This document shows, piece by piece, positions 11,012-30,448 of a stretch of DNA of 36,740 bases (positions are counted from its first letter, which is position 1; the number at the start of each line of letters is the position of its first letter). Both the position numbers and the translations under genes were made by a program. The stretch comes from an uncultured Candidatus Saccharibacteria bacterium (GTDB lineage: Bacteria; Patescibacteriota; Minisyncoccia; JAHISW01; Tagabacteraceae). The notes beneath the pieces are model-generated. The model was not told the DNA's origin, ran no database searches, and saw nothing but the letters and a program-made list of their open reading frames with translations. The stretch is from assembly GCA_964590835.1 (NCBI GenBank), contig CAZPYD010000001.1, positions 1-36,740 of the forward strand, in the 5' to 3' direction.

Positions 11012-11054
11012 AAACCTCCTTTTTACCCCGCTCAGCAGGGTTTGTATGTTAAAA
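11012..11054 (-). promoter_or_regulatory. 43-nt leader module (boxA-like, hairpin, SD), copy 1
   Basis: TTTTAACATACAAACCCTGCTGAGCGGGGTAAAAAGGAGGTTT; 40/43 identical to 30406-30448. Confidence 0.8.
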
Positions 11055-11096
11055 TACTAGATAATCTTTTATTATATTGCCTTTTTTGTGGAATTT

Positions 11097-11567
11097 TTAC
11101 AATAGTTGATCTTCTTTTTCCTCTCTTGAAATTTTTTCTTCCAATTTTACAAGAGAAAATAATATTATATATGTAAGAATTGTGGTAAAAGCAGCCATAT
11201 AATAAAAGCCCATTCCTACAGCCATACCTATTGCTGCAGCGGCCCAAACAGAAGCCGCGCTAGTTAATCCATGTATTTCTGTTTTGGTAAAAAATATAAT
11301 ACCTGCACCCAAAAAACCAACTCCCACCACTATCTGACTGGCAATACGACTAGGATCATAATTAAAAACATGCGGCACATTCTCCAAGCCCGCAAAGGAT
11401 AATATTGTAAAAAGAGCCGAACCCATACAAACAAGCATATATGTACGAAGGCCAGCTGGTTTACCAGAGTACTCTCTCTCAAAACCAATTATCATACCTA
11501 AGACAGCTGCAATAAAAATTTTTAACAACTGATCAAGTGGTACACTTTGTATTATTTCTGCTAACAT
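11097..11567 (-). CDS. MgtC/SapB family membrane protein
   Basis: IGFERE...KPAGLRTY.LV..GSALFT, DPSRIA.QIV.GVGFLGAG.I, GLTSAASVW..AAIGMAVG. Confidence 0.95.
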   Translation of the reverse strand: MLAEIIQSVPLDQLLKIFIAAVLGMIIGFEREYSGKPAGLRTYMLVCMGSALFTILSFAGLENVPHVFNYDPSRIASQIVVGVGFLGAGIIFFTKTEIHGLTSAASVWAAAAIGMAVGMGFYYMAAFTTILTYIILFSLVKLEEKISREEKEDQLL

Positions 11568-11594
11568 ATTAAATAAAGAATTAAGAATAATGAA

Positions 11595-12635
11595 TCAAGA
11601 ACTTTGTTTCTTTAGGTGTATTTTAGCTAAAACTAATTCTATTGGTAGCTGCGGTAAGTATGCTCGATTTGTTTTGTCATAAGCATCCAAAAGAAGTGTT
11701 AAAACATAGCCCAAATCTCTTACAGTAGTATTGCTTACTTGTGTTTTTAAAAAACCAACCTCGTCTTTGCCCAAGATTTTTCCTAAATCTCTTTCTGTTT
11801 GAGGAGATAATTTTATCATTAAAAGCGCGCGAATATTACGCAAAATAAACTTTAAAAATAATTGAGGGGCAATACCCTTTTCTATTGCTTTTTGAACTAT
11901 CTCCATCCCCTGTTCACTATTTTTTTCAACCAAAGCAGTGACAAACCCTTGGATATATTCTTTTGAGGGAGCTGATAATATTTTTCTTGCCTCATCACCG
12001 GTTATTTTTTTGTCACTATCTATTGATAAAATTTGATCTAGCATTACCAAGGCATCTCTAAAAGATCCATCAGCAAAAAGAGCAATAAGAGACCCTGCCT
12101 CACTATCTACTTCATAACCCTCCTTTTTAGAAATATTTGAAACAGCTTTTCTTAATAAATCTTCGGATAATTTTTTGAATGAAAAATGTTGGCAACGAGA
12201 TGTAATAGTATCAGGTAGTTTTTCTGGTTCGGTCGTTGCCAGTATAAAAATAACATGACCAGGTGGCTCTTCTAAGGTTTTTAAAAGAGCATTAAAAGCT
12301 TCCTTTGTAAGCATGTGAACCTCATCAATAATATATATCTTGTATTCGCTTTTTAATGGACTTATATTCACTGATTCACGCAAATTACGGATTTCGTCTA
12401 TACCCCTGGATGATGCTGCATCCATTTCCACCAAATCATATTCACGACAACCCACACCACTAGATAAAAGACGTGCAGTAGTGGTTTTACCTGTACCACG
12501 TGGACCTGAAAAAAGATAAGCATGAGATATCTTTTTTGCTTTAACAGCCTCTTTCAAAACATTTATAATATGATCCTGCCCCAAGACTTCACTAAATTTC
12601 TGGGGACGATATTTTCGATATAGTACTTTAGCCAT
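11595..12635 (-). CDS. dnaX: DNA polymerase III subunit gamma/tau
   Basis: LYRKYRP, HAYLFSGPRGTGKTT, EMDAAS, IIDEVHML, FNALLKTLEEPP, TITSRCQ, GSFRDA. Confidence 0.97.
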   Translation of the reverse strand: MAKVLYRKYRPQKFSEVLGQDHIINVLKEAVKAKKISHAYLFSGPRGTGKTTTARLLSSGVGCREYDLVEMDAASSRGIDEIRNLRESVNISPLKSEYKIYIIDEVHMLTKEAFNALLKTLEEPPGHVIFILATTEPEKLPDTITSRCQHFSFKKLSEDLLRKAVSNISKKEGYEVDSEAGSLIALFADGSFRDALVMLDQILSIDSDKKITGDEARKILSAPSKEYIQGFVTALVEKNSEQGMEIVQKAIEKGIAPQLFLKFILRNIRALLMIKLSPQTERDLGKILGKDEVGFLKTQVSNTTVRDLGYVLTLLLDAYDKTNRAYLPQLPIELVLAKIHLKKQSS

Positions 12636-12915
12636 ACCCAGTAATACACTATCGCGTTAAAGCAGAATAGCGTTTAGTTATGTTATTTATATTTATAATT
12701 TGCTGTTTTATTATTTTCATATTTGTAATTGTTTGCCCTTTTTCTGTTTTATGTTCTTCTGTATTCTTTGGATACTTTTCTTTTCTTATGGCGACCACGG
12801 TTTATAGATTAGTCATCTTTATTTTAATTAAAGAAGAACATGCGCGAGTGTGTATTACTGAGCATACTTATATTTTACCCTCCACAACCCAAAATTGCAA
12901 AATAACAAATAAATA

Positions 12916-12949
12916 AAACCCCGGGCTTGCATAAGCAAACTCGGGGTTT
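12916..12949 (-). terminator. Hairpin terminator after the PyrF-like gene
   Basis: AAACCCCGGGCTTGC-ATAA-GCAAACTCGGGGTTT. Confidence 0.7.
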
Positions 12950-12960
12950 GATAAGACCAA

Positions 12961-13671
12961 TTAGCCTCTTTTAAATTCTTTTCCAAACATATCTTGAAGA
13001 GTATTTTTCAAGACGCGTGTCGGATCGATGTTTTTTGTAATCCAGTCCCCAACAACAAGCATATCGGCTCCATCTTCAATAGCCCTAGCCGGAGTAACGC
13101 CTTGTGTATGTTTTTCTTCATCAAAATACCAGCTTGGCACAACATTTGTAGCGATTTTTTTTAAATGAATAGCTCGACAATCAAACAAAACTTTTCCAGG
13201 AATTAAAATAAAATCAAAACCTAATTGTTGAATTACCATAGCTTGTGTCTTTATAGACACATGTTCTGAAGCAAATACCGGAGCGGTTACGGATGATAAA
13301 TCTCCAATTATTTTTCTGGTTTTAAGGGGATTTTCAATCCAATCTTTTATACTAACAAGAGTAACAAACTGTTTTTCTAGAATAGTTTTTGCGTTAATCA
13401 AGTTAGTTTCAACAAGAAGAGGTAAGCCAGTCTTTTCTACATCTTCTACCATATCATCAGCAACCTTTAGACCAACAAATTTCCAAACAGATTTACCAAA
13501 AATAGTGCAACCAGCCATTTTTTCAAATATTTGCTCAACAAAATCAAGATAAGTATTAACGTTACCGAGGGATGATGGCTTATTTACCTCAATCCACAAA
13601 AAAGGTTTTTTGAATTCTTTTTTTATCGGCGCTAAAAGTTCTTCTTTCTTTTTGCTTTTGCCACCAGCCAT
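12961..13671 (-). CDS. Divergent OMP-decarboxylase (PyrF)-like protein, catalytic motif degenerate
   Basis: C-terminal TPARAIEDGADMLVVGDWIT...DP and GLKV match PyrF; DxKxxD replaced by ETNLIN; AGGAGG SD; promoter TTGACT-17-TATTCT at 13747-13775. Confidence 0.65.
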   Translation of the reverse strand: MAGGKSKKKEELLAPIKKEFKKPFLWIEVNKPSSLGNVNTYLDFVEQIFEKMAGCTIFGKSVWKFVGLKVADDMVEDVEKTGLPLLVETNLINAKTILEKQFVTLVSIKDWIENPLKTRKIIGDLSSVTAPVFASEHVSIKTQAMVIQQLGFDFILIPGKVLFDCRAIHLKKIATNVVPSWYFDEEKHTQGVTPARAIEDGADMLVVGDWITKNIDPTRVLKNTLQDMFGKEFKRG

Positions 13672-13833
13672 TTCTAGCCTCCTTTTTATCCAAATTAAAC
13701 TTTATTTGGTTTGAGTGATTATTATTTTCAAAGTAAATTTAAACCAAGAATAACAGAAAAAATAAAATTAGTCAATATTTTAAAAAACCATAAAATAAAT
13801 CCTTATCTTATGGTTTTTGTAAATTTTTTGATT

Positions 13834-14460
13834 CTACTTTCTAAATACTATAAACTTGTAGCCTAAGAAATTCCAGGTAAGAGAAAATATCGTCGCAAAA
13901 ACTTTGGCTATATTTAGCCACAGCTCGGAACTCACACCCCCTATTGGATTTATATAAGTAGTAACGAGTATCACTACTCCGCTATTTATAAAAATACCGG
14001 TTGTAACAACCAATACAAAAGTAAAAAAATCACTATAATCTGTTTTTACAGCGTCACCATCCCCACTTGTCCGGTCGGCAGGTTTTTTAAATACCCAAAA
14101 TTTGTTCCAAAAATAACTATTTGTAGCAGCTAGCATAAATCCGGGAATATTTACCCCGCCTATCAAAAAACCGGCAGTAAGCCCGCTAACCAAACTTAAA
14201 AGATTTAATACTCCAAAATCTATAGAAGTGTTCAAAAATCCTACAACAACGAATTTGCCGATTTGATTAAAAACAGGCTTCCATCTAGCTAGTAGTTTTG
14301 CAATAAAGAGGCCAATTATCCACAGGGCTGGAACTCCAACAAGCAATCCAAGAAAAATAGACCAAGAAGCAAGCCCCAAGTTTAAAAGAGAGAGTAAAAC
14401 AAAAAACACTGTCACTAAGCCAGCAATTATCGCAATAAGATAGTCTCTGTTATTGTGCAT
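13834..14460 (-). CDS. GtrA-family membrane protein
   Basis: KFVVVGFLNTSIDFGVLN, NSYFWNKFWVF, WNFLGYKFIVF. Confidence 0.9.
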   Translation of the reverse strand: MHNNRDYLIAIIAGLVTVFFVLLSLLNLGLASWSIFLGLLVGVPALWIIGLFIAKLLARWKPVFNQIGKFVVVGFLNTSIDFGVLNLLSLVSGLTAGFLIGGVNIPGFMLAATNSYFWNKFWVFKKPADRTSGDGDAVKTDYSDFFTFVLVVTTGIFINSGVVILVTTYINPIGGVSSELWLNIAKVFATIFSLTWNFLGYKFIVFRK

Positions 14461-14504
14461 AATTATATTATAGCAAAAGAATTAATATGGTAAAATAAAG
14501 TATA

Positions 14505-15353
14505 ATGACGATTAAAAAAATGGGTTTTTATTTAACTATATTTATTTTAGGATTTTTGGCTATATCGCTGTGGAGCTTTTATATTGTTGTCCGCCCACCT
14601 AAAATTATTCTTAATAGAAATCCAGCCAATTTTAATTTACCAGCAAAAGAAATAGATTTAACCACAACAGACGGTGTTAATCTTTCTTCCTGGTTTGTAG
14701 AAGGCAACAAAGAAAAAGTTGTTATGTTTTTGCATGGATATCCGGCAGAAAAATCAGATATGCTCTTTATTGCGTCTTCTTTATATCCAGATTTTTCTCT
14801 TTTACTTGTTGATTTACGTTATTTTGGTAAAAGTGAAGGAAAATATACGACACTTGGAATAAAGGAGCAGCTCGATGTAAAAGCCGGATTGGATTTTTTA
14901 GAATCAAAAGGATTTAAAAATATTGGCATTTTAGGTTTTTCTCTTGGGGGAGCAACAGCCTTAAACACAGCCGAAAAAGACAAAAGGATAAACGCCATTG
15001 TTTCGTATGCATCATTTGCTGATTTAAGAACGCTTGGCTATCAAACATACTGGACACTTCCCGGATTAAAATATCCTTTAGTTGAGTTAATGCTATTGTG
15101 GTCTAAGGCCTTATTTAGTGAATCAGCCATCAAAACATCACCACTAAATGCAGCCCCAAATATCAACATCCCTGTAATGCTGGTTCACTCCAAAGAAGAC
15201 GAACAGATTTCGTTTAAGCACGCAGAAAAATTAAAAGATGCATTTCAAAAAAACCCAAAAGCTCAATTTTATTTTTTAGAAACAGGCTTGCATGGCGAGC
15301 TGCCTGTTGATTTTAATATACGAATAAAAGAATTTTTTAAACAATCCTTATAA
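14505..15353 (+). CDS. Membrane-anchored alpha/beta hydrolase
   Basis: FLHGY, DLRYFGKSEG, nucleophile GFSLG, acid D (HSKEDEQI), His (GLH). Confidence 0.92.
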   Translation: MTIKKMGFYLTIFILGFLAISLWSFYIVVRPPKIILNRNPANFNLPAKEIDLTTTDGVNLSSWFVEGNKEKVVMFLHGYPAEKSDMLFIASSLYPDFSLLLVDLRYFGKSEGKYTTLGIKEQLDVKAGLDFLESKGFKNIGILGFSLGGATALNTAEKDKRINAIVSYASFADLRTLGYQTYWTLPGLKYPLVELMLLWSKALFSESAIKTSPLNAAPNINIPVMLVHSKEDEQISFKHAEKLKDAFQKNPKAQFYFLETGLHGELPVDFNIRIKEFFKQSL

Positions 15354-15374
15354 ATTATAATACAAATACAAATA

Positions 15375-16580
15375 ATGAAAAAGAAAAAATTATTAAAAAA
15401 TTATTTTGACGGAAAGATTTCTCATGGCTTTGTTTCTCTTTATACTGGCAAAACCATAGTAATGATATCTTCTGGTCTTTTGGGGCTATTTTTACCTATT
15501 TTTATTTACAACACTCTAGGGCAAAGCTTTAGAGGAATGGCTTTGTTTTTTGGAGTTGGTTACTTGGCTTATGTTCTTTTTTTATTTTTTGGTGTTAGAT
15601 TTTTAAATAAATTTGGCTTTAGACGGGCCTTAAGAATAAGTGTATTTTTAGGTGCACTCTATTATGCACTTTTTTATTTTGTAGATGGAGGAAACTTTAT
15701 TAAACTCGCTCCTTTTATTATTATTGTTCTTTCTTTGTATAGAGTATTATACTGGATGCCTTATCATGTAGATTTTGCAAAATTTATTGCAAAAAGAAAC
15801 AGAGGAAGACAAATAAGCGCCTTAAGAGCCACCAAAGAGATCATTGGGGTTTGTATTCCACTTATTGCCGGCTTTATGATTAACAAATTCGGGTTTGATG
15901 TTCTTTTTGTTACTGCGGTAATTCTTTATTTAATATCAGGGATACCTTATATTACTATTCCCCGTACTAGAGAGAAATTCAGATGGGGCTATAAAACAAC
16001 ATTAAAAAATTTATTTTCTCCAAAAATAAGAAAGCAAATGATTGCCTTTATGTCAGATGGCGCAGAAAACGTTATTGCCGTAATTGTTTGGCCGATTTTT
16101 ATATTTCAAATTCTTGACGGTGATTATTTTAAAATAGGCGCCCTTTCTACTTTAGTTATTGCTTTTACAGTCACAATACAATTAATGCTTGGCAAATATC
16201 TAGACAAATCCTTACAAAAAGAAAAGATCTTAAAGTTTGGGAGTATGCTTTCTTCTGTTGGATGGCTTATCAAGATATTTATAGCGACTGGATTTCAAAT
16301 TTTTATAGTTGGTGTTTTTCATAATTTATCTAGAATTTTTACAAGAATTCCTTTCGATGTTATCACCTACGAATCAGCAGCAAATCAAAATCATTATGTT
16401 GATGAATTCACGGTTTTACATGAATTGGCAATTAATATAGGCAAGGTTTTGGCTGTAATTTTTGCAATTACAGTGTCGTTTTTTCTTCCAATGCAATATG
16501 TTTTCGTTTTGGCAGCAACAGCATCTGTTTTTCTTAGTCTTTTACGTCCTGAGACAGATGAAATTATTAAACTTAATTAG
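15375..16580 (+). CDS. MFS transporter
   Basis: ~12 TM helices; RGRQIS and LGKYLDK motif-A-like loops. Confidence 0.8.
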   Translation: MKKKKLLKNYFDGKISHGFVSLYTGKTIVMISSGLLGLFLPIFIYNTLGQSFRGMALFFGVGYLAYVLFLFFGVRFLNKFGFRRALRISVFLGALYYALFYFVDGGNFIKLAPFIIIVLSLYRVLYWMPYHVDFAKFIAKRNRGRQISALRATKEIIGVCIPLIAGFMINKFGFDVLFVTAVILYLISGIPYITIPRTREKFRWGYKTTLKNLFSPKIRKQMIAFMSDGAENVIAVIVWPIFIFQILDGDYFKIGALSTLVIAFTVTIQLMLGKYLDKSLQKEKILKFGSMLSSVGWLIKIFIATGFQIFIVGVFHNLSRIFTRIPFDVITYESAANQNHYVDEFTVLHELAINIGKVLAVIFAITVSFFLPMQYVFVLAATASVFLSLLRPETDEIIKLN

Positions 16581-16594
16581 CACAACAACAACTC

Positions 16595-18169
16595 ATGAAT
16601 AAAAAACAAATATTTTTCTTTTTAATAATTATTCTTTTGATCGGTTCTTTTTTTAGATTATATCAATTAGAAACTACCCCTCCGGGACTTTATCACGACG
16701 AGGCCATGAATGGTAATAATGCCCTTGAGGCACTTGAAACCGGTGAATACAAATGGTTTTACACAGAAAACAACGGACGAGAAGGGTTGTATATCAATCT
16801 TGCAGCTCCGCTTTTGTCTATTTTTGGAAATGAGTCATGGGCGCTGCGCGGATTATCGGCAATATTTGGAATTTTAACAATTCTTGGTTTATTTTTACTC
16901 ACTAAAAAACTTTTTAATACCCGTATTGCCTTGTTCGCCTCTTTTTTCTTAGCAACAAGTTTTTGGCATATTTTATTTTCACGCATAGGATTTAGGGCAA
17001 TTATGGCTCCATTTTTCTTAACCTGGAGTTTTTATTTTTTATTTAACTGCCTGTCTGCCGGTAAAGTAGGTATTAAAAATAAAAAAACTTGGTACATAAT
17101 GGCTGTTTTAGCTGGTTTGTTATTTGGGCTTGGTTTTCATTCTTATATTGCTTATCGAATTGCGCCACTTTTGTTAATTGTTCCTTTTGTTTTGCTCTGG
17201 AAAGAAAAACAAAAGTGGGCTATTGCACTATTTTTGATTTCTACTTTTATTGCTGGTTTACCGCTTGGTTTATATTTCCTGGAAAACCCTCAAGACTTCT
17301 TTGGACGAACCTCTCAAATCTCTATTTTTTCTTCAGAAAATCCAATTCAAAATTTAATACTAAATATAGGCAAAACAATTGGCATGCTATTTTTTGTGGG
17401 AGATTTTAATTGGAGACACAATCTAGCTGGTGCCCCTACATTATGGTGGCCTGTGGCAATTTTATTTTTCTTCGGAATACTAATTAGTCTTAAAAAAATA
17501 ATTTCTAATATCAAAAGACCTACAAAAGTAGCCGGGTATTGGCTTTTGTTTATTTGGTTTGCTGTAATGATGTTACCTGTTGTTGTTTCCAGTGAAGGGC
17601 TCCCACATGCTTTGCGTGCCATTATTTTAATTCCTCCAGTAATGATTTTTGCTGCAATTGGTTTAAACTGGAGCTTTTTAAAAATTAGAAAATGGGTAAA
17701 CATTAAAATTAAAAATCATCCAGAAAACAAAAAACAACTCACAAGAATTAGATTTGAATTTATTGCACTTTTATTTGTTTTTTTATTTTTTATTACCACC
17801 TATTCTTTTAGTCAATATTTTATAAGGTGGGGTTTAAACATTAATACTTATGAAGCCTTCAATGGCAGGTATTGGAAAATTGGGAAATATCTTCAGAAAA
17901 TGCCCGATAATATTGAAAAATACGTCATAATAAATGCCGGGGGTGTTTTAGCAAATGGAATACCCATGCCAGCTCAAACTGTTATGTTTTCCGCGGCAAA
18001 TATAAAAGTTAATTATCTTTTACCAGAAGAAATTAGTTCTATAAATTGCCCGAGATCTTGTATCATAACTTCTTTGGAAACAGATAGATTTTTAAGAGAA
18101 AAAATCAAAAAACAAATACCTGGGTTAAAAATTACAATTAAGCCTGGCTTTGAGGCCTTAATAAAATAA
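16595..18169 (+). CDS. Glycosyltransferase family 39/ArnT-PMT-like
   Basis: R.Y.L...PPGL..DEA.NG, WHI.FSRIGFRAI, multi-TM. Confidence 0.9.
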   Translation: MNKKQIFFFLIIILLIGSFFRLYQLETTPPGLYHDEAMNGNNALEALETGEYKWFYTENNGREGLYINLAAPLLSIFGNESWALRGLSAIFGILTILGLFLLTKKLFNTRIALFASFFLATSFWHILFSRIGFRAIMAPFFLTWSFYFLFNCLSAGKVGIKNKKTWYIMAVLAGLLFGLGFHSYIAYRIAPLLLIVPFVLLWKEKQKWAIALFLISTFIAGLPLGLYFLENPQDFFGRTSQISIFSSENPIQNLILNIGKTIGMLFFVGDFNWRHNLAGAPTLWWPVAILFFFGILISLKKIISNIKRPTKVAGYWLLFIWFAVMMLPVVVSSEGLPHALRAIILIPPVMIFAAIGLNWSFLKIRKWVNIKIKNHPENKKQLTRIRFEFIALLFVFLFFITTYSFSQYFIRWGLNINTYEAFNGRYWKIGKYLQKMPDNIEKYVIINAGGVLANGIPMPAQTVMFSAANIKVNYLLPEEISSINCPRSCIITSLETDRFLREKIKKQIPGLKITIKPGFEALIK

Positions 18170-18178
18170 AATATCAAT

Positions 18179-20646: not shown

Positions 20647-20656
20647 AACAAAAAAC

Positions 20657-20700: not shown

Positions 20701-20709
20701 TTATTTTGT

Positions 20710-21720: not shown

Positions 21721-21728
21721 ATTTACAG

Positions 21729-22505
21729 TTATTTATAATAGACCTTATTACCAAATCGCAAATCTATATATTCAAATTCTTGTCCATCAAAATCTTTATA
21801 AAAAACATTAAAATTATTAACAGTCGTTTCCCAATTATCATCATTATCTACTATTATGTAAGACCCGCCCTCAAAATAAAACCTATAAACATTTTCTTTA
21901 TCCAAATAAACACTTTCAACAATAAAAAAATCATCCAACACTTTTTTAAAAACTAATAAATTTTGAAATTTTTCTTCAGGTAATAAAAACTGGCCCAAAC
22001 TTGGTCTTATAGATCTTTCATCAAATAATTTTATAAAAATGCCAGCTGAAAAAAGAGGGGCTTCACTATAAATAAAACCTGTCTTATCTACAAAAAGACA
22101 ATCCTTAAATTCATCTTTGCACAAAATAGCAACCGGCTTTCTTTCTTTTGCTTGTATAAAAATATCCGTAGATTCTTTTATTACTAAGATTTCTTTTAAA
22201 TTTAAAAACTTTTCAATTAATTGTGTTTGGGTATTTTGAGTTGGAAAAGAAAAAATTCTATCCTGAGGAATTACCCAAAATTTTTTAGCCGACATTATAC
22301 CGGCAACTTCTGCTAATAATAAGTTTTTTTGGTGCTCAGGAACACCACGAACTTCTATGGAGCTTATTTTAAACTCTTCAAAATTAAAAAGACCAAACAA
22401 GCCGGCGCTAAACATCATAAGCAAAACAAAAAACACTAAAGCAAACTTTATATAAAGCCTTTTTCTTCTTCGCTTTTTTACTAACTGTAGAGCATTTTTT
22501 GACAT
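21729..22505 (-). CDS. FtsQ/DivIB-like cell division protein
   Basis: Basic N-terminus, one TM, POTRA-like segment, C-terminal YIDLRFGNKVYYK. Confidence 0.75.
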   Translation of the reverse strand: MSKNALQLVKKRRRKRLYIKFALVFFVLLMMFSAGLFGLFNFEEFKISSIEVRGVPEHQKNLLLAEVAGIMSAKKFWVIPQDRIFSFPTQNTQTQLIEKFLNLKEILVIKESTDIFIQAKERKPVAILCKDEFKDCLFVDKTGFIYSEAPLFSAGIFIKLFDERSIRPSLGQFLLPEEKFQNLLVFKKVLDDFFIVESVYLDKENVYRFYFEGGSYIIVDNDDNWETTVNNFNVFYKDFDGQEFEYIDLRFGNKVYYK

Positions 22506-22525
22506 AGATTTAAATTTTCTTCCGC

Positions 22526-22566
22526 AAGCAAAACCTCAATTCCAACTATTTTATGAGGTTTTGCTT
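22526..22566 (-). terminator. Hairpin downstream of serS
   Basis: AAGCAAAACCTCA...TGAGGTTTTGCTT 13-bp stem. Confidence 0.55.
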
Positions 22567-22584
22567 ACAAAAGAACAAATTCCA

Positions 22585-22823
22585 AACCCAATCCGCCATA
22601 ACTCCATTTTCGAACTCTGCGGAAAGGATTAGAACCTGCCTGCCGGCAGGCAGGAATTAAAGAGTGTAGTAGAAAAACTCATCCTGTTTAAGCTTTTCTA
22701 GCTACTTTAAAAAATATGATAAAAGACAGGAAGGTGAGATATGGGTTTTTCGTTAAGCGGAACGACTATAATTTTCAATTCTTGGATGCAATGAGAGAAA
22801 AGGGAGTTATAGCGGTTTGGGTT
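22585..22823. repeat. ~220-bp foldback element, copy 2, with 20-bp insertion
   Basis: Colinear with 197-417; terminal IR AACCCAATCCGCCATAACTCC / GGAGTTATAGCGGTTTGGGTT. Confidence 0.9.
22635..22654. repeat. Perfect 20-bp palindrome inserted in copy 2
   Basis: CCTGCCTGCCGGCAGGCAGG, absent at the equivalent site of copy 1. Confidence 0.9.
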
Positions 22824-22831
22824 AGAAGGTT

Positions 22832-24109
22832 TTAACCTTGAATCTTTTTTGAGATCACCTCTTTACCAATATATTTTTGAAGAACTTCTGGCACTTCTAT
22901 AGAACCATCTGCTTTTTGATAGTTTTCTATAAAAGAGATTAAAATGCGAGGTGTGGCAATAACAGTATTATTTAAAGAGTGCACAAAATAGATTTTACCT
23001 TCTTTCGTTTTATAACGAGTATTAAGCCTTCTTGTTTGAAAATCATGAAAGTAAGAAGCTGAATGAGTTTCACCATATTTTTCTTTAGAAGGTATCCAGG
23101 CCTCTATGTCATATTTTTTGACTTGTCCTTGTCCTAAATCACCCCCACAATTAACTACAACCCTAAATGGGATACCTAGTTTTCTCATTATCTTTTCAGA
23201 ATTGTTTGTAATTTCTTCATGCCATTTTACAGATTCCATGTGATCGGCTTTACATAATACGATTTGCTCCACCTTCATAAACTCATGAAGTCTGTATAAG
23301 CCTTTTGTATCTTTTCCGTGACTTCCAGCTTCCCTTCTAAAACAAGGAGAAATAGGAACATATTTTTTAGGCAATTCATCTTCAGATAACATCTCATCAG
23401 AATGATAACCCATCATGGGGACTTCGGCTGTACCCGCTAAATAAAGATCGTCTTGGGTGTGATAAACCTCGTCCTTGCCCTGTGGCAGCCATCCTGTACC
23501 ACGAAAACTATCTTCTCTTGTCATAGAAGGAGCAAGAAAAGGAGTAAACCCAGCCTTCACCATTTCCTCAAAGCAAAACTGCCAAATAGCAAATGTAAGA
23601 AGAGCGCCTTCGTTTTTAAGAAAATAACCACGAAATCCAGACACTTTTGTTCCTCTTTCAAAATCAGCCAAATCCAAATCTTTCATTAGTTCAATATGAC
23701 CCTTTGGCTCAAAATCAAACTCTGGCAATTCTCCCCATTTTCTTATTTCCTGATTATCTAAATCAGATTCACCTTCTGGTACAGAATGATCTGGAATATT
23801 TGGAACTTCTAACATCAAGGCCTCCCACTTTTTCTGAGCTTCTTTTAGCTCCAACTCTTTTTTAGAAAGACCGTCTTTTAGCTGTTTCATTTCATTAATC
23901 ATCTCTTGCCTTTCTTCATTATCTTCCATTTTAGAAATACGTTCAGTTTGTACATTCTGCTCTGCGCGCAAAGTTTCCACCTCGCCGATTAACTTGCGTC
24001 GAATATCATCAATATCTAAAAGATTATCCACATTAAATTTAATGTGTTTTTTGTGTGCCGCCTGCTTAATCAGCTCTTTATTTTCTCGTATAAAATTTAT
24101 ATCTAACAT
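22832..24109 (-). CDS. serS: Serine--tRNA ligase
   Basis: MLDI.FIREN, coiled arm, YLAGTAEVP, CFRREAG, RLHEF.KVEQ, KYDIEAW, HSLNNT..ATPR. Confidence 0.98.
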   Translation of the reverse strand: MLDINFIRENKELIKQAAHKKHIKFNVDNLLDIDDIRRKLIGEVETLRAEQNVQTERISKMEDNEERQEMINEMKQLKDGLSKKELELKEAQKKWEALMLEVPNIPDHSVPEGESDLDNQEIRKWGELPEFDFEPKGHIELMKDLDLADFERGTKVSGFRGYFLKNEGALLTFAIWQFCFEEMVKAGFTPFLAPSMTREDSFRGTGWLPQGKDEVYHTQDDLYLAGTAEVPMMGYHSDEMLSEDELPKKYVPISPCFRREAGSHGKDTKGLYRLHEFMKVEQIVLCKADHMESVKWHEEITNNSEKIMRKLGIPFRVVVNCGGDLGQGQVKKYDIEAWIPSKEKYGETHSASYFHDFQTRRLNTRYKTKEGKIYFVHSLNNTVIATPRILISFIENYQKADGSIEVPEVLQKYIGKEVISKKIQG

Positions 24110-24351
24110 CTTTAAATAATACCAAAATCCCCATTTTTTGCAAAACCCGGTAGTACAATTTCAAATTAAATACTACCGGGCAAAAGAGCAAAACAAAAAC
24201 CGCCCTGCACACGCAAGGCGGTTTGATATTTTACTATCTTCGAGTCATTACATCACCAGCCTAAGGCTGATGGCACCACTCACAAAAAGACCAATCACAC
24301 AAAAAAATGGTTTTACGAGCAAAATCTCTTGCCATTTTATTATCTCCTCTT

Positions 24352-24522
24352 TCATATCTTAAGTTTTGTTATATCGACTTCTTTTGGAGAACCATCTGGA
24401 TTAAACCCAAGCTCCATTTGAGCTTCAAATGTATCGACATTAATAACTTTTTTGTGATATTTTATTTTTCTTCTTCTTTTCCTTCTTTTTTTTCTTCTTT
24501 TTAAAGACAAATAGAATCCCAT
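24352..24522 (-). CDS. Small basic hypothetical protein (56 aa, start ATG 24522)
   Basis: AAGGAG SD-like, promoter TTGACT-17-TATTTT at 24580-24608; poly-K/R N-terminus. Confidence 0.55.
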   Translation of the reverse strand: MGFYLSLKRRKKRRKRRRKIKYHKKVINVDTFEAQMELGFNPDGSPKEVDITKLKI

Positions 24523-24605
24523 TGTCCTTCTCCTTCCCGCCAAAGGCGGATAAATTTCAAGGTTAATATTTCTAAATAAAAAATAATACAAAAACTTATT
24601 CTAGT

Positions 24606-24632
24606 CAAACGCCTCACCTGGTGAGGTGTTTG
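24606..24632. repeat. REP-like hairpin of a different family next to the transposase
   Basis: CAAACGCCTCAC-CTG-GTGAGGTGTTTG. Confidence 0.7.
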
Positions 24633-24650
24633 GATTTTGGTGACGATATC

Positions 24651-24687
24651 AATTATTTACTCGAAGCGACGCTTCGAGTAAATAATT
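24651..24687. repeat. REP hairpin abutting the transposase stop codon
   Basis: AATTATTTACTCGAAGC-GAC-GCTTCGAGTAAATAATT, perfect 17-bp stem. Confidence 0.93.
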
Positions 24688-25386
24688 TTAAATAAGTAGG
24701 TTTATTTTTCCCCTATCTACCTCCGACCAATTTTTTAAAAAAAACTCATAATCTTTTCCATTTTTAAATTGATCGGTAATTATTTTTATTCCCGATAGTA
24801 TCCAATCATCATAATCACTATATAAAAAACTTTTCAAGCTAGACCATGGGTATTTTAACAACTCCCTCTTTTTTTGATTCCAGTTTTTTAAATTTCCGGT
24901 TCTCCAGTCTTTGCTATCAAGAAAATCTAAAGGATTTAAATGAATATACAAAGAAAGATGAAGTAAATACTGATTTGAATCGATATGTTTTGCTTTAAAA
25001 GGCCCATCAAATAGCGGACCTTTTCTACCTTTTTTTATATTTACGTATTTGGAAATCGAAGTATTGCATTTTTGCAAAAACTCAGAAATACCTCCTTCTC
25101 TTAATTCTTTTAATAAAAGGTGGTAATGGTCGGGCATAATCGCATAAGCAATTACATCAACAAGCTTATCTCCATTCCATGCAATTTCTGCGCTTCTTGC
25201 AAGAGTAGCTTTGTTATAAACCCTTAAATAATCAAAGGCTTTTGTAGATTCTGTTGAATTTGCCAATAGGAAACAATTTGCAAGTTTTTGTGCATTTTCA
25301 AAGTCATCAAATTCTGGGAGGCTTAAGATAATCCTACTATAAACATGATAATATTCTCCTGGGAAAAACGTTTCTTTTCTTTGCAT
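24688..25386 (-). mobile_element. REP-associated tyrosine transposase (RAYT, Y1 HUH family)
   Basis: YYHVYSR, HUH motif AYAIMPDHYHLLL, G.LF.GPFKAK, catalytic YIHLNP, YPWSS; identical REPs on both sides. Confidence 0.92.
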
Positions 25387-25395
25387 AATATATTT

Positions 25396-25426
25396 ATTTT
25401 ACTCGAAGCGACGCTTCGAGTAAAAT
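25396..25426. repeat. REP hairpin just upstream of the transposase start
   Basis: ATTTTACTCGAAGC-GAC-GCTTCGAGTAAAAT; 27-bp core identical to 24651-24687, same orientation. Confidence 0.93.
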
Positions 25427-25431
25427 CGTTT

Positions 25432-25460
25432 TTGACAGCACGGGGACAACAAATTAAAAT
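25432..25460 (+). promoter_or_regulatory. sigma70 promoter of dprA (leaderless geometry)
   Basis: TTGACA-17 nt-TAAAAT, 7 nt before ATG 25468. Confidence 0.8.
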
Positions 25461-25467
25461 ATACTTA

Positions 25468-26523
25468 ATGAAGGATGAAGAAAAAATTTTTGCCAATGCT
25501 TTAAATCAAGCTCCTCAATTGGGACCTGTTAGCTTGGGTAATCTCAAAAAATATTTTGGCAGCTTTAAGAAAGCCTGGTCTGCCTCTTTTGATAAGCTGC
25601 AAAAAGTTAGCGGCGCGAGAGACCTTTTTGAATTTAGACAAAACATAGATCCTGAAAAAAAAATTGAAAAACTTCAAAAAGAAAATATAAAAATATTATT
25701 AAAAGAAGAGTTGCCTTATTTTTTACAAGAGATTTATACCCCGCCAGAAATTTTATATGTAAAAGGTGAATTACCAAATGAAAATTTGAATCATCTAGCA
25801 GTGGTTGGTCCACGAAAATTCTCTACTTATGGCAAAGAGGCTTGCCAAAAAATAATAAATGGGTTAAAAGAACATAATGTGGTAATAGTAAGTGGCTTGG
25901 CTGCAGGTATAGATACCATCGCCCATATTGCCGCACTTGAAAATAACTTACAAACAATTGCTGTTTTGGGACACGGTCTAGATCCCCGAGTTTTATTCCC
26001 GCAAGACAACATGCAGCTTGCTGACAAAATAACAAAAAACGGATGTGTAATTTCTGAATATAGTTATTCTACAAGGGCTACAAAGTTTACTTTTCCGCAA
26101 AGAAACAGAATAGCCGCAGGTCTGTCGCAAGGCACTTTGGTAATAGAAGCGCCAGAAAGAAGCGGATCTTTAATTACCGCCACCATGGCTCTTGAAAGCA
26201 ATCGTGAAGTATTTGCAGTTCCGAATAATATTTTTTCAAAAAATTCCGAAGGAACAAATAAATTATTAAAAGAAGGGGCTGTGCCTGTGACAGAACCAGA
26301 AGACATTCTTAAAACTTTTGGAATAGATATTGAATCCAAACCCCAAAATATTGTTTTAAGTGAAACAGAGCAAAAAATAATTTCTTTTCTTGATGAGCCA
26401 ATAGAAAGAGACGAGCTGATAAGAAAATCCGGCATGCAGCCTCAAGAAATTAATCCACAATTAATACAAATGCAAATAAAAGGTATTATAAAGGAGATAG
26501 ATGGTAAAATTTATCAAGTTTAA
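25468..26523 (+). CDS. dprA: DNA-processing protein DprA (start corrected to 25468)
   Basis: LAVVGPRK.STYG, IVSGLAAGIDTIAH, FPQRNRIAAGLS, EAPERSGSLITA, REVFAVP, C-terminal winged helix. Confidence 0.96.
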   Translation: MKDEEKIFANALNQAPQLGPVSLGNLKKYFGSFKKAWSASFDKLQKVSGARDLFEFRQNIDPEKKIEKLQKENIKILLKEELPYFLQEIYTPPEILYVKGELPNENLNHLAVVGPRKFSTYGKEACQKIINGLKEHNVVIVSGLAAGIDTIAHIAALENNLQTIAVLGHGLDPRVLFPQDNMQLADKITKNGCVISEYSYSTRATKFTFPQRNRIAAGLSQGTLVIEAPERSGSLITATMALESNREVFAVPNNIFSKNSEGTNKLLKEGAVPVTEPEDILKTFGIDIESKPQNIVLSETEQKIISFLDEPIERDELIRKSGMQPQEINPQLIQMQIKGIIKEIDGKIYQV

Positions 26524-26532
26524 TGAAAACAA

Positions 26533-26624
26533 TGCGATACCAATATACGAATGCATGCTAATAATACTAATACTTAAATTCGTATCTATTAGTATCATTA
26601 GTAAAATTAGTATATTAGTATCGA
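26533..26624. repeat. ATACTAAT-unit foldback repeat, copy A (upstream of topA)
   Basis: ATACNAAT units then ATTNGTAT units; reverse-complement match to 30026-30151. Confidence 0.8.
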
Positions 26625-26637
26625 GTAATTAGTTAAT

Positions 26638-28755
26638 ATGAATTTAGTTATCGTAGAGTCACCAACAAAAGCCAAAACAATCCAACGCTTTCTTGGAGAT
26701 GATTTTCAAATTGAATCTAGCTTTGGGCATATGCGAGATTTACCCAAAGGAGATTTGGGTATTGATACGGAAGGTAATTTTGAGCCTCGCTATGTTATCC
26801 CGAAGAAATCACAAAAAAAAGTTACAGCACTAAAAAAGATAGCTCAAAAAGCAGATAAAATTATACTAGCAACCGATGAAGACCGTGAAGGAGAAGCCAT
26901 TGCCTGGCATCTTATCCATGCCCTTAAACTAAAAGAAGATGGAAACAAAGATAAAAAAATAGAGCGTATTGTTTTTCATGAAATTACAAAAGGCGCGATA
27001 AAAGAGGCTCTTAAAAATCCTCGCGAGGTAGATATGGATCTTGTGGATGCGCAACAAGCCCGCAGAATACTAGATAGGCTTGTGGGCTACAAGCTATCCC
27101 CTTTCTTGTGGAAAAAACTAATGCGAGGACTTTCTGCTGGACGCGTACAATCTGTAGCCCTTCGCCTAATTGTTGACCGTGAAAACGAAATTCGGGCATT
27201 TAAGCCAGATGACTACTGGACTATTTCTGCCACCTTCGATTCTCCAAAAGATGAACTTTATTCTGATTTAGTAAAAATAAACGACAAGACCATCCCTAAA
27301 CCAGGCATAATGGATAAAAATGAAGTAGATAAAATAATTAAAGAATCTCAAAAAGGCAAATGGAAAATAGAATCTATCGTAAAAAAGGAAAGGAAACAAC
27401 ATCCTAAGCCACCATTTACAACCAGCTCGTTACAGCAAGAGTCTTGGCAAAAACTAAGATTTTCAGCCAAAAAAACAATGATGATAGCGCAACAGCTATA
27501 CGAAGGTATAAACCTAAAAAAAGAAGGTGGTGCAACCGGTCTTATTACCTACATGAGAACAGACTCATTAAATGTATCGGAGAGTGCTTTAAAATCTGCA
27601 AACAGTTATCTAATAAGTAACTTAGGAGAAAAATACAGTCTAGCTCAACCTCGTCGCTTTAAGACTAAATCTAAAGGCGCACAGGAGGCTCACGAAGCTA
27701 TCAGACCATCTAAGCCGGAATTATCTCCTGAATCAATCAAGAGCGAACTTAAAACAGATCAATACAAACTATATAGCCTGATTTGGAAAAGGTTTATGGC
27801 CAGCCAAATGCCAGAAGCTATCTTTGATAACACTACCGTAAACATAAATGTAGCTCATGAAAAAAATAATTATTTATATCGCGCAAAAGGTTCTATTCTA
27901 AAATTCGATGGTTTCTTAAAAATTTATGAAATGGCAGTAGAAGAAAAGACTTTACCAGATCTTTCTGAAAAAGATAAGGTGGCAGCAAAAGAAATAAAAT
28001 CCGAAGCACATCAAACTCAACCACCAGCGCGATACAATGATGCTTCCATAGTTAAAACTCTAGAAAAGCACGAGATTGGTAGACCCTCTACTTATGCGCA
28101 AATTATTTCTACTATCTTGGCGCGCAATTATATAGAAAAAGACGAAGCAAAAAGATTTATACCAACAGAAATTGGTGAAAAAGTTAATACTATTTTAGTT
28201 GAACATTTTCCTCAAATAGTGGATATAAACTTTACAGCCAAAATGGAAGATGATCTTGATAAAATTGCAGAAGGTAAAGCAGAATATCCACCAATAATAA
28301 AAGATTTTTATGAACCGTTTGAAAAGAATCTTGAAGAAAAATACGAGACAGTAGAAAAAGAAGACTTAACAGAAGAAACAGACGAGGTTTGCGAAAAATG
28401 TGGCAAACCAATGGTTATCAAACACGGCCGCTTTGGCAAGTTTATAGCTTGCACTGGATTCCCGGATTGTAAAACAACAAAACAGCTTCCCGCTAAATCT
28501 TTAGGTATCAAATGCCCGCTTTGTAAGACAAGCTTGCCCGCCAAAACCTCAACAAAGGAGGGCGATGTGATTGAGAGAAAAACTAAAAAAGGTAGAATGT
28601 TTTATGGCTGCTCTGAGTGGCCAAAATGTAAATTTGCCACATGGCAAAAGCCCACTGGCGAACTATGTCCTGACTGTCAGTCCCCCACAGTAGAACTCAA
28701 AAATAGTATCAAGTGCTCCAATAAAACCTGCACTTATAAAGTAGAAAAAGAATAA
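26638..28755 (+). CDS. topA: DNA topoisomerase I
   Basis: LVIVESPTKAKTI, ATDEDREGEAI, SAGRVQS, ITYMRTDS, GRPSTYA, C-terminal Zn ribbons. Confidence 0.98.
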   Translation: MNLVIVESPTKAKTIQRFLGDDFQIESSFGHMRDLPKGDLGIDTEGNFEPRYVIPKKSQKKVTALKKIAQKADKIILATDEDREGEAIAWHLIHALKLKEDGNKDKKIERIVFHEITKGAIKEALKNPREVDMDLVDAQQARRILDRLVGYKLSPFLWKKLMRGLSAGRVQSVALRLIVDRENEIRAFKPDDYWTISATFDSPKDELYSDLVKINDKTIPKPGIMDKNEVDKIIKESQKGKWKIESIVKKERKQHPKPPFTTSSLQQESWQKLRFSAKKTMMIAQQLYEGINLKKEGGATGLITYMRTDSLNVSESALKSANSYLISNLGEKYSLAQPRRFKTKSKGAQEAHEAIRPSKPELSPESIKSELKTDQYKLYSLIWKRFMASQMPEAIFDNTTVNINVAHEKNNYLYRAKGSILKFDGFLKIYEMAVEEKTLPDLSEKDKVAAKEIKSEAHQTQPPARYNDASIVKTLEKHEIGRPSTYAQIISTILARNYIEKDEAKRFIPTEIGEKVNTILVEHFPQIVDINFTAKMEDDLDKIAEGKAEYPPIIKDFYEPFEKNLEEKYETVEKEDLTEETDEVCEKCGKPMVIKHGRFGKFIACTGFPDCKTTKQLPAKSLGIKCPLCKTSLPAKTSTKEGDVIERKTKKGRMFYGCSEWPKCKFATWQKPTGELCPDCQSPTVELKNSIKCSNKTCTYKVEKE

Positions 28756-28774
28756 TAAAAAACTTATTTAAAAA

Positions 28775-30022
28775 CTAGAACATACTAAAAAAATCTGTCT
28801 CTTCGTCGTCTTCTTTCTCTTCTTTTTTCATGTCTTCTGGTTCAGGAGTTGATTTAATTGGTCCTGAGTTTAGCCCGTCATCATGTTTATCGTTTTCTTT
28901 TTCAGTATCGGCAACTATTTGCTCAAACTCAAGTTCTCGCTTAGGTTCTTCTGCTGGATCTTCAGGAATAACTGGTTCAGCTTTTGGTGTAGTATCTTCA
29001 TTAAACTCTACTGTTTTGATAATTTCCTCCGCTTCTTCTTGAAGAGAAGGGGAACTTTCTGGAGTGCAAGTAGTACAACTGGCAAGTCTTATTTCAGGAT
29101 TAGAGTTTGAGATAGATTCTGGCTCCTCATGAGAACAAGTCTCGCATGGTTCTTCCTCTTTTTCGCTACAAGCAACTGCTTCATTCATAGCACCAACTTT
29201 TGCTAAAAAAGCTGCAAACTGATCCTCTGAATCAAACTCAAAAGAAATCTTTTTAGCTGGTCCTTTCTTTTGTACAGAAACTTTTGTTCCCAAAACATTT
29301 GATAATTTTTGTTGAAGTGCTTCAGCCTCTGGATCAACCTGGAGAGGTTTTACTCTTGGAGTTTTGTAGCTTTGAACAATCTCACGAGCCATTTTTTCAG
29401 CATCACGCACAGTCATCTTGGTCATAACAATATCCTTGTAAAGATTCATTTGCTCGTCTTTTTGTTTTTTTAAACTCAAAAGTGGTCTAGTGTGACCTTC
29501 ATTAATAAGACCTTGCCTTAGTCCATCTTTTATTTCGTCTGGTAAGCCCAATAAACGCAATGAATTAGAAACAAACACTCGACTCTTGCCCATCTTAGCC
29601 CCAACCTCATGGTGCCGCATTTTAAAATTATCAATAAGCTGAGCAAAAGCTTCTGCTCTTTCAATTGGGCCCAAGTCTTCTCGTTGCAAATTTTCGATAA
29701 GAGCAAGTTCTAATTTTACTTGTTCTGAAGGATCTTCACGAATAATTACCGGTACTTGCATCAATCCCGCCATTTTAGAGGCTCGCCACCTTCTTTCTCC
29801 GGCAATAAGTTCGTATTCTACCACCGTACCAGTTGGAATATCTTTTTCGTGACGAATAACAATCATTGGCTGCAAAACGCCATATTGCCTAATAGAATCA
29901 GAAAGCTGTTTTAGATGTTCCTCGTTAAATTCACGACGAGGTTGCATTGTGTTGGGTCTAATTTTTTCAACCTCAACAGTAAAAACACCACTTTCTTTTC
30001 TTATTCTTGGTAGATCATTCAT
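28775..30022 (-). CDS. parB: ParB/Spo0J partition protein with long acidic C-terminal tail (start ATG 30022)
   Basis: QPRREF, SIRQYGVLQP, YELIAGERRWRA, LIENLQREDL, HTH GKSR..VSN.LRLL.LP, GH.R.LL. Confidence 0.93.
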   Translation of the reverse strand: MNDLPRIRKESGVFTVEVEKIRPNTMQPRREFNEEHLKQLSDSIRQYGVLQPMIVIRHEKDIPTGTVVEYELIAGERRWRASKMAGLMQVPVIIREDPSEQVKLELALIENLQREDLGPIERAEAFAQLIDNFKMRHHEVGAKMGKSRVFVSNSLRLLGLPDEIKDGLRQGLINEGHTRPLLSLKKQKDEQMNLYKDIVMTKMTVRDAEKMAREIVQSYKTPRVKPLQVDPEAEALQQKLSNVLGTKVSVQKKGPAKKISFEFDSEDQFAAFLAKVGAMNEAVACSEKEEEPCETCSHEEPESISNSNPEIRLASCTTCTPESSPSLQEEAEEIIKTVEFNEDTTPKAEPVIPEDPAEEPKRELEFEQIVADTEKENDKHDDGLNSGPIKSTPEPEDMKKEEKEDDEETDFFSMF

Positions 30023-30025
30023 AAA

Positions 30026-30151
30026 TCGATGCAAATATACTAATTAATACTAATGATACTAATTAAACTGACGCCGAATATACTAATTAACACCAATGAT
30101 ACTAATAATTAAATTCGTATAATTAGTATGCATTAGTATATTGGTATCGCA
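30026..30151. repeat. ATACTAAT-unit foldback repeat, copy B (upstream of parB)
   Basis: Inverted homolog of 26533-26624 with an internal ~29-bp duplication (30035-30063 vs 30078-30106). Confidence 0.8.
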
Positions 30152-30221
30152 CTAACTTTATTATATCTAAATTGACTATCTTGCGCAAATTCACTAATAT
30201 TATAGTATCAAACAAAATATT

Positions 30222-30303
30222 GCCGTCGTGGCGGAATTGGCATACGCGCACGACTCAAAATCGTGTGAGGCAACTCATGTGGGTTCGACTCCCACCGACG
30301 GCA
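30222..30303 (+). tRNA. tRNA-Leu (anticodon CAA), CCA not encoded
   Basis: Acceptor GCCGTCG/CGACGGC, anticodon arm CACGA-CTCAAAA-TCGTG, variable arm TGAG-GCAA-CTCA, GTTCGAC T-loop. Confidence 0.97.
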
Positions 30304-30405
30304 CAAATAAATTAAGCCTCCTTCAGGATGGCTTTATTTTTTTGTGCCGTCTCCCTTCCTCTTTACTTCTCCACCATTCCATGCTTTAGTGGACATAGAA
30401 GAGTT

Positions 30406-30448
30406 TTTTAACATACAAACTCCGCCGAGCGGGGTAAAAAGGAGGTTT
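30406..30448 (+). promoter_or_regulatory. 43-nt leader module, copy 2
   Basis: TTTTAACATACAAACTCCGCCGAGCGGGGTAAAAAGGAGGTTT. Confidence 0.8.

Follow-up and report, generated by a model that had tools for sequence, protein, structure and literature searches.

The window analysed here, a stretch of 36,740 nt from an uncultured Candidatus Saccharibacteria bacterium (contig CAZPYD010000001.1), carries two copies of a 43-nt leader, each consisting of a small GC-rich hairpin followed by a strong Shine-Dalgarno (SD) sequence. The assembly that contains the window has 702,910 bases in 40 contigs, with 34% GC and a completeness of 92%, and belongs to the Patescibacteria, or Candidate Phyla Radiation (CPR). 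We refer to this genome as G000; G001, G003, G007 and similar labels stand for the relatives with which it was compared.

Copy 1 (11012–11054, minus strand) lies in the 88-nt spacer between a co-directional MgtC-family gene upstream (11097–11567, minus strand; PF02308, E = 1e-41) and the gene for a 221-residue HAD-family hydrolase (10343–11008, minus strand; Pfam HAD_2, PF13419, E = 7e-27), whose TTG start at 11008 places the DxDGT motif at residues 10–14. It reads TTTTAACATACAAA-CCCTGCTGAGCGGGG-TAAAAAGGAGGTTT, that is, a 14-nt left flank, a hairpin with the core CCCTGC-TGA-GCGGGG (11026–11040, minus strand) and a right end holding the SD sequence AAGGAGG (11015–11021, minus strand) 6 nt before the TTG. 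Copy 2 (30406–30448, plus strand), about 100 nt past a tRNA-Leu(CAA) gene, reads TTTTAACATACAAA-CTCCGCCGAGCGGGG-TAAAAAGGAGGTTT, with the core CTCCGC-CGA-GCGGGG at 30420–30434 (plus strand) and AAGGAGG at 30439–30445 (plus strand), 8 nt before the ATG at 30454 of a 48-residue open reading frame (ORF) with one hydrophobic stretch (30454–30600, plus strand). Among 30 relatives nothing matches this ORF convincingly; the only other hit has an E value of 0.004. Each core retains one G.U pair on the sense strand of its gene, and on the opposite strand of copy 1 the same position is an A.C mismatch.

The two copies agree at 40 of 43 positions; the remaining three are C/T differences, of which two fall in the 5' arm and one in the loop. 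A sequence-only reading of this DNA had claimed as much, and the claim was borne out when both stretches were read again; a degenerate 43-mer matched the window twice, at these two copies, and had no match in 100 dinucleotide-preserving shuffles. A repeat finder extended the shared block to 47 nt at 91% identity, and when 170 nt around each copy were aligned with gaps, no likeness appeared outside this block. The same reading had placed a further arm at 35641–35672, where GCGGGGTAAA is indeed present twice (35653–35672), adjoining a third hairpin at 35644–35658. This third family copy, CCCCGC-CTG-GCGGGG followed by TAAA-GCGGGGTAAA (35644–35672, plus strand), lies inside an HI0933-like flavoprotein gene, in frame on the minus strand. 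Contigs from four DNA runs over 10900–30600 show no indel or joint at either leader copy; their cover, about 5x and fragmented, says nothing about polymorphism.

The 14-nt left flank and the 3 nt past the SD sequence are common to copies 1 and 2 only, being absent at the other copies of the family described below. Because TTTTAACATACAAA is common to the window copies only and is not accounted for by the repeat unit, a patch of 43–47 nt was probably copied, either from one window copy to the other or to both from a common source. The route might have been duplication, or gene conversion seeded by the repeat, in either direction. The search for HAD orthologues gave a single one within the family, in G001 at 38% identity, whose gene has a different upstream neighbour and no leader; G009 has a weak match to the protein. 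In G007, a 99%-identical tRNA-Leu follows the same ParB-like gene and has nothing comparable downstream. The absence of the leader at both places is consistent with its late arrival, each being a weak test of an empty site.

A dispersed palindrome and its insertion sites

A scan of the G000 assembly for CCCCGC-N3-GCGGGG found about 14 copies, nine exact and five with one transition, nearly always with TAAA or CAAG directly 3'. The exact pattern occurs 0–31 times in each of 30 relatives, and the reversed pattern, used as a control, is absent from all 31 genomes. Among seven sister genera of the same family the exact copies number 31 (G007), 14 (G005), 3, 2 and 1, with none in G003 or G004. Of 15 perfect GC-rich hairpins in G000 with a 6-bp stem and a 3-nt loop, nine have the CCCCGC stem, and block-shuffled genomes hold 0–2 such hairpins in total. 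In other families of the class (G021, G012, G025) most copies have a TTA loop and lie within ordinary terminator-like stems; we count them as a different kind, the CGA-loop form with the tag being that of the window's own family.

We collected 63 copies, of which 56 could be oriented by the tag and seven were left out as ambiguous or untagged. The loop C-G-A goes with the 3' tag in 46–51 of the 56, positions -1 and -2 are rich in A, and the flanks beyond -2 and +19 hold no information. Since the information is limited to -2 to +19 and the loop goes with the 3' tag, the unit is about 19–21 nt long and has a direction, reading approximately AA-CCCCGC-CGA-GCGGGG-(C/T)AA(G/A). The invariance of the stem is partly circular, as the G007 and G005 copies were collected by the exact pattern; a looser pattern added two variants in G007 and none in G005. 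The one-transition variants of G000 retain a sense-strand G.U pair in four of five cases, which is not significant, and two further variants occur in G007 and G005.

By a greedy ORF call, eight of the 14 G000 copies lie inside long ORFs, namely those for PheT, Fpg, a NuoB-like hydrogenase subunit, UvrB and a U32 peptidase (in the tails of both), an M48 peptidase (in the last codons, where the hairpin gives the stop codon), the window's HI0933-like flavoprotein and one open-ended ORF. Three copies lie at most 35 nt upstream of tRNA genes, and one is in a duplicated 5' part of tRNA-Lys beside a small GIY-YIG gene. A similarly crude greedy call puts 25 of the 31 G007 copies inside ORFs (18 sense, 7 antisense), where they mostly read Pro-Pro-Ser-Gly; several are in the first 10 codons, one of these in a protein that is L15-like as judged from its N-terminus. 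Orientation in G000 leans to the gene's sense strand (nine sense, two antisense, three ambiguous). We considered whether it is set by the replication strand and rejected the idea: local GC skew agreed at 7 of 11 copies, no better than the gene strand, and the contigs are too short.

Several copies adjoin tRNA sequences. At C27:3140–3540 (locus L007) an intact tRNA-Lys(UUU) stands on one side of the small GIY-YIG gene; on the other, upstream, is a duplicate of the tRNA's first ~27 nt with its 6-nt leader, which has the CCCCGC hairpin in its D-loop. We reject a tRNA with a hairpin in the D-loop as a reading of this stretch, as ARAGORN detected none whether the hairpin was kept or removed and the stretch is the duplicated 5' part of tRNA-Lys. 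The locus has the look of a GIY-YIG cassette that entered a tRNA gene and restored it, and a G007 locus (L027:2380–2480) has the same layout with two hairpins. At C20:14165–14190, C16:9679–9700, window 35644–35672 and G005 L076:1501–1530 one more GCGGGG arm comes after the hairpin; at tRNA sites this arm is the tRNA's own 5' end (GCGGGGA in tRNA-Pro, GCGGGTA in tRNA-Gly) and in coding sequence is a third arm, GCGGGGTAAA. The 3' arm of the hairpin itself resembles the 5' ends of tRNA acceptor stems.

Comparison with orthologous proteins shows sites that are occupied in some genera and empty in others. PheT has six extra residues at the hairpin in G000 and G007, which are missing from G001, G003, G005 and G006; Fpg has six extra residues (APAERG) in G000 only, and not in G007, G001 or G003; and the NiFe-hydrogenase large subunit (Pfam NiFeSe_Hases) carries the hairpin, at a net gain of four residues, in G007 and G005, whereas G000, G003 and G001 lack it. 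The sets {G000, G007} and {G007, G005} have one member in common and neither contains the other, so at least one site was gained twice or precisely lost. No orthologue of the window's HI0933-like protein was found in five sister genera, and its homologue PDB 2i0z was therefore used instead; relative to it, the window protein has a 13-residue insertion at the hairpin.

Copies beside Shine-Dalgarno sequences

GGAG or GAGG follows within 14 nt in 10 of the 56 oriented copies, compared with 4.4% of random genome positions (binomial p = 1.6e-4), two of the ten being alleles of one locus and two others not being ribosome-binding-site contexts. Hairpin, SD sequence and start codon occur together at seven loci, two in G000, three in G007, one in G005 and one in a distant Campbellbacteria metagenome-assembled genome (MAG), and six of these seven have 6 nt between the end of the hairpin and GGAG. 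These leaders stand before unrelated genes, namely those for a HAD hydrolase, an ORFan, an M16 peptidase, a class IV aminotransferase and three proteins that belong to no Pfam family. A class-wide scan for GCGGGG-YAAR-AAGGAG matched 6 of 401 genomes and none with the control, and in G076, G119 and G238 there is no proper hairpin at the match. Among public genome_contigs, GCYGAGCGGGGTAAAAAGGAGG was found at no locus and the looser CCGCYNRGCGGGGYAARAAGGAG at five, namely two ends of one Campbellbacteria MAG and three GC-rich genomes; metagenome_contigs gave three loci for CCGCYNRGCGGGGYAARAAGGAG, all at 57–66% GC. The matches in the three GC-rich genomes and the three metagenome loci were taken for chance.

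The flank TAAAAAGGAGGT is found at three G000 copies, both window copies and one on contig C16. The C16 copy has this SD-like flank without a start codon; it lies within a long leader, about 35 nt past a canonical TTGACA-16-TATAAT promoter, and the real SD sequence and ATG are 87 nt further on. There are 47 AAGGAGG sites in G000 with a start codon and an ORF behind, and leaders with TAAA or CAAA before AAGGAGG and no hairpin are common, so the SD sequence need not belong to the repeat. The sequence-only reading had proposed a module that supplies an SD sequence, which does not agree with the finding that past the 4-nt tag nothing is conserved in the 56 oriented copies. It had also named random placement relative to start codons as the observation that would speak against a module, and this expectation holds in part: most copies lie in coding sequence, tRNA leaders and gene ends, while the excess beside SD sequences remains. 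With crude start calls, 349 G000 genes are preceded by a gap of 70 nt or more, and only about 30 of them show GGAG at -13 to -9; TATAAT-like hexamers, common near starts, are most frequent about 10 nt upstream of the start codon. Many genes may be leaderless, or the crude starts may be wrong.

We consider it fairly probable that a short palindromic repeat with an orientation, similar to a REP (repetitive extragenic palindrome), is present twice as the 43-nt block, with one patch of 43–47 nt copied within the window. The element looks like a very short REP-type repeat rather than a dedicated control switch or a new regulatory module. The suggestion that it is mobile, possibly a domesticated REP, fared well, given the lineage-variable copy number, the empty sites in sister genera and the occurrence of hairpin plus SD sequence before unrelated genes in three genera and one distant MAG. 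The repeat would have spread by insertion in this CPR family, into 5' untranslated regions (UTRs) before strong SD sequences, tRNA leaders, gene ends and in-frame protein loops and tails. Both window copies are sense-oriented and would be transcribed with the downstream gene as a 5'-UTR hairpin, whose 7-bp stem ends 6 nt before GGAGG and would leave the ribosome-binding site free. The hairpin may be neutral there or may bring a modest gain, as a barrier to 5'-to-3' decay or as insulation of the ribosome-binding site, and a modest gain would explain why SD-adjacent copies are kept above chance.

A bolder form of this proposal is one that we would put forward only as a long shot. It holds that an oriented mini-palindrome of ~19 nt, smaller than any described REP, is aimed at the translation-initiation regions of ultra-small CPR genomes, landing 6 nt upstream of strong SD sequences and in Lys-rich N-terminal tails (read as Pro-Pro-Ser-Gly), and that it acts as a portable 5' hairpin tuning mRNA life or translation. 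It would be mobilised in trans by a RAYT-like (REP-associated tyrosine transposase) Y1 enzyme or a small GIY-YIG enzyme.

For the mobilising enzyme, RAYT-like Y1 (HUH) nucleases would be the obvious candidates. Y1 genes (IS200-like, PF01797) occur in 19 of the 31 genomes, with four in G000, four in G007 and nine in G005. Each of the four in G000 is bracketed on both sides by its own perfect palindrome of 25–33 nt, and these palindromes have 2, 8, 6 and 8 genome copies, some of them inside other genes and Y1 genes. The Y1 gene of the window (24688–25386, minus strand, 232 residues) lies between identical 27-nt perfect palindromes, TTTACTCGAAGCGACGCTTCGAGTAAA, at 24656–24682 and 25398–25424; the others are on contigs C7, C13 and C15, and their palindromes, at 6–8 copies, occur among other places within the hydrogenase large subunit and the U32 peptidase. 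A Y1 gene with flanking palindromes is the REPtron-like layout described in passages of PMC3733652 (Di Nocera et al. 2013) and PMC6006769 (Quentin et al. 2018).

Small GIY-YIG genes are a lead of another kind. Two of the 14 G000 copies have such a gene within 100 nt, and one of these loci is common to G007. The remaining GIY-YIG genes (from nine matches in G000, nine in G007 and two in G005) have no hairpin nearby, and the association is a lead only. Three G000 loci, C16:4600–5050, C9:3760–4230 and C10:2000–2470, have near-identical flanks, with GCCCGGTAGTACAAATTCAAAT upstream and an inverted match downstream, and look like copies of a cassette bounded by terminal inverted repeats. A fourth gene, at C20:15572, lies among duplicated pieces of tRNA-Gly-like sequence.

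Competing readings

Folding of both leaders gave a 7-bp stem with a 3-nt loop (UGA or CGA), and in the centroid structure the SD sequence stayed free of pairing. In fold energy, the 63-nt stretches did no better than shuffles (z = -0.2 and -0.7). The C/T changes retain the sense-strand G.U pair and break the antisense hairpin, which fits a transcribed hairpin and argues against an antisense terminator at both sites. These changes are single transitions and not compensatory pairs, and the conserved RNA hairpin that they had been taken to fit in the sequence-only reading is not supported by covariation: the family has one fixed stem, the CCCCGC stem that makes up nine of the 15 GC-rich mini-hairpins. 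With the Rfam 15 covariance models only two tRNAs passed the gathering score, and around both copies nothing was below E = 0.18. The same reading had likened the leader to a boxA-boxB nut site for antitermination. In favour of this, TTTAACA resembles the 3' half of the Escherichia coli rrn boxA, whose full consensus we take to be GCTCTTTAACAA, and is followed 7 nt later by a hairpin. This explanation now seems scarcely credible. The heptamer occurs 300 times in the genome and is absent from the other family copies, the GCTC half of boxA is missing, and the loop has 3 nt in place of the five purine-rich nucleotides of boxB. The context is neither phage nor rRNA, and no phage genes lie around either copy. 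The assembly has no 16S rRNA gene whose leader could serve for comparison.

An intrinsic terminator on the opposite strand, which would read CTTG-CCCCGC-TCG-GCGGGG and then T-rich sequence and would stop antisense or read-in transcription, is a very improbable account of the window copies. Runs of 4–7 T do follow the reverse strand of many G007 copies, and some copies lie within longer terminator-like stems (L014 and several of the TTA-loop copies in other families). In both window copies, however, the reverse-strand hairpin has an A.C mismatch and its tail is TTTGTATG rather than a clean T run, and across the family the enrichment for A is confined to -1 and -2. On the sense strand, TAAAAAGG comes after the hairpin, and the scan for intrinsic terminators called none on either strand at either site. 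Another reading is a compact expression cassette, in which TAACAT in the left flank would be a -10 box, with the transcription start at or just before the hairpin. The mRNA would thus open with a 5'-terminal stem-loop ahead of a perfect SD sequence, making the whole a portable module of promoter, stabiliser and ribosome-binding site. Such a cassette would explain why the left flank is limited to two copies that need an expression signal of their own, and copy 2 does follow a tRNA gene and a hairpin plus T run that by eye reads as a terminator, although the scan called none there. TATAAT-like hexamers near start codons are common in this genome, and 5'-terminal hairpins and strong SD sequences near the 5' end are classical mRNA stabilisers. 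We nonetheless regard the cassette as unlikely, since TAACAT matches TATAAT at four of six positions with no -35 box at the proper distance, the promoter scan, which scored as many sites in shuffles as in the real sequence, placed no sigma-70-type site with its end at the flank, copy 1 is in an operon-like spacer after the MgtC gene, and the C16 hairpin is internal to its leader, downstream of the promoter already described. A look-alike of the left flank at 3887–3920, TTTTAAAATACAAA, matches it at 13 of 14 positions and stands, without a hairpin, 6 nt before the AAGGAGG-ATG of a 72-residue ORF. It would fit the cassette, and it could be chance or a shared promoter-like word; by rough arithmetic, about one near-match to a 14-mer would be expected by chance when the genome is AT-rich.

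A further reading is a dedicated cis-regulatory site, in which the palindrome would be the operator or RNA target of one sequence-specific protein controlling translation or decay for a set of genes, and the intragenic copies would be secondary. The stem is invariant across genera while the surrounding codons diverge, nearly all copies are perfect, the spacing to the SD sequence is constant at six of seven loci and the orientation is biased to the sense strand. Yet the number of copies ranges from 0 to 31 among genera of one family, most copies lie in coding sequence, tRNA leaders and gene ends, and the genes behind the SD-type copies share no function; the G001 HAD orthologue does without the leader, as does the sequence after the G007 tRNA-Leu. 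We judge such a site to be quite unlikely.

Returning to the REP-like repeat, several observations weigh against it. The copies are almost all perfect palindromes, even at orthologous coding sites (PheT is 55% identical between genera), which could reflect a sequence-specific function rather than selfish spread, and the excess beside SD sequences, reduced as it is by the alleles and other contexts noted above, could likewise mean function rather than tolerance. The extra 14-nt left flank of the two window copies is not accounted for by the repeat unit. No Y1 or RAYT gene is flanked by the CCCCGC hairpin, and none lies within ~1 kb of it in G000, G007 or G005; as the G000 assembly is 92% complete, a cognate Y1 gene may have been missed. 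Hairpin counts do not track Y1 counts, G021 having 10 hairpins and no Y1 gene and G014 no hairpins and eight Y1 genes. The TTA-loop copies being terminator-like, the broad counts mix at least two kinds of hairpin, and the ORFs in the relatives are crude greedy calls rather than gene predictions. Finally, published REP units measure 20–40 bp and have a GTAG or CGTC tetranucleotide at one end (a passage of PMC3733652), whereas the core here is 15 nt (19 with the tag) and the 3' tag is (C/T)AA(G/A), or CTTG or TTTA on the other strand.

Other features of the window and known systems

Apart from the palindrome, the window contains other repeats. Three copies of a 100–230-nt element, 75–92% identical, lie at 197–420, 22584–22817 and 36112–36210, each just past a minus-strand gene, and the one at 197–420 is a long inverted repeat with arms at 197–233 and 381–417. 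AT-rich repeats built on AATATACTAATTAATACTAATGATACTAAT, both direct and inverted, are found at 26521–26603, upstream of a topA-like gene, and at 30027–30163, where the ParB-like gene and tRNA-Leu flank them; a shared operator or a partition-type site is one possible role. A single ORF of 711 residues at 31482–33617 has MiaB-like domains (UPF0004, radical SAM, TRAM) and a MiaA domain (IPPT), and from its domains would be a fusion of two consecutive enzymes of tRNA-A37 modification.

If the REP-like reading is true, an apparent regulatory module becomes an example of selfish mini-repeats shaping very small genomes, adding loops to essential proteins (PheT, Fpg, hydrogenase, UvrB) and settling beside ribosome-binding sites, and gene callers and motif hunters would wrongly take such copies to be regulatory signals or genuine parts of proteins. 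The 6-nt spacing to the SD sequence and the near-perfect palindromes are not fully explained, and could come from target choice by the inserting enzyme or from selection for a 5' hairpin. REPs inside genes are already in print, and the step beyond known biology is modest; passages of PMC3733652 and PMC6006769 describe REPs that carry a tetranucleotide tag and lie in frame within genes, in many cases repair genes, with an enrichment at N-termini. A full-text literature search combining CPR with palindromic repeats had nothing on CPR REPs among the matches listed, and was not taken further. Rickettsia palindromic elements are mentioned in a passage of PMC3733652.

Several features are shared with REPs. 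The element is a short palindrome, rich in GC and tagged on one side by a conserved tetranucleotide, and is repeated above chance in tens of dispersed copies (about 14 in 0.70 Mb here, 31 in G007), and both its number and its presence at given sites (PheT, Fpg, NiFe-hydrogenase) vary between related genomes. Copies that would be transcribed have G.U pairs, in-frame copies occur in repair genes (UvrB, Fpg and a UvrC-like gene of G007), and protein termini are enriched. As in the REP/RAYT systems of Proteobacteria and others, palindrome-flanked Y1/HUH genes exist in G000, although the CCCCGC hairpin itself flanks no RAYT. Unlike REPs, which are mainly extragenic and downstream of genes, the copies lie mostly inside ORFs as called by the greedy method (8/14 in G000, 25/31 in G007), and their preference is for a position 6 nt before SD sequences and not for gene 3' ends.

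Other systems share single properties with the repeat. The boxA-boxB sites of lambda nut and rrn leaders also have a linear motif followed by a small hairpin, but the window copies have neither a full boxA nor a 5-nt purine loop, there is no N protein or rRNA context, and the heptamer is a common word of the genome. Rickettsia palindromic elements are selfish insertions of ~100–150 bp that occur in frame in conserved protein and RNA genes and add 30–50 residues; they too are in-frame palindromes in a reduced, AT-rich genome, whereas the inserts here add 4–13 residues. The GC clusters and double-hairpin elements of fungal mitochondria are short GC-rich hairpin units that, like ours, have spread in a small AT-rich genome, genes included, although they measure 30–60 nt, belong to an organelle and have no known link to ribosome-binding sites. 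With respect to the leaders themselves, the closest parallels are 5' stem-loop stabilisers, among them the ompA 5' hairpin, the Bacillus STAB-SD (cryIIIA) and the ermC leaders, in which a stable hairpin lies near a strong SD sequence in a short leader and to which the window copies may correspond in effect. Those are leaders that evolved at single genes, whereas the hairpin described here is a member of a dispersed repeat.

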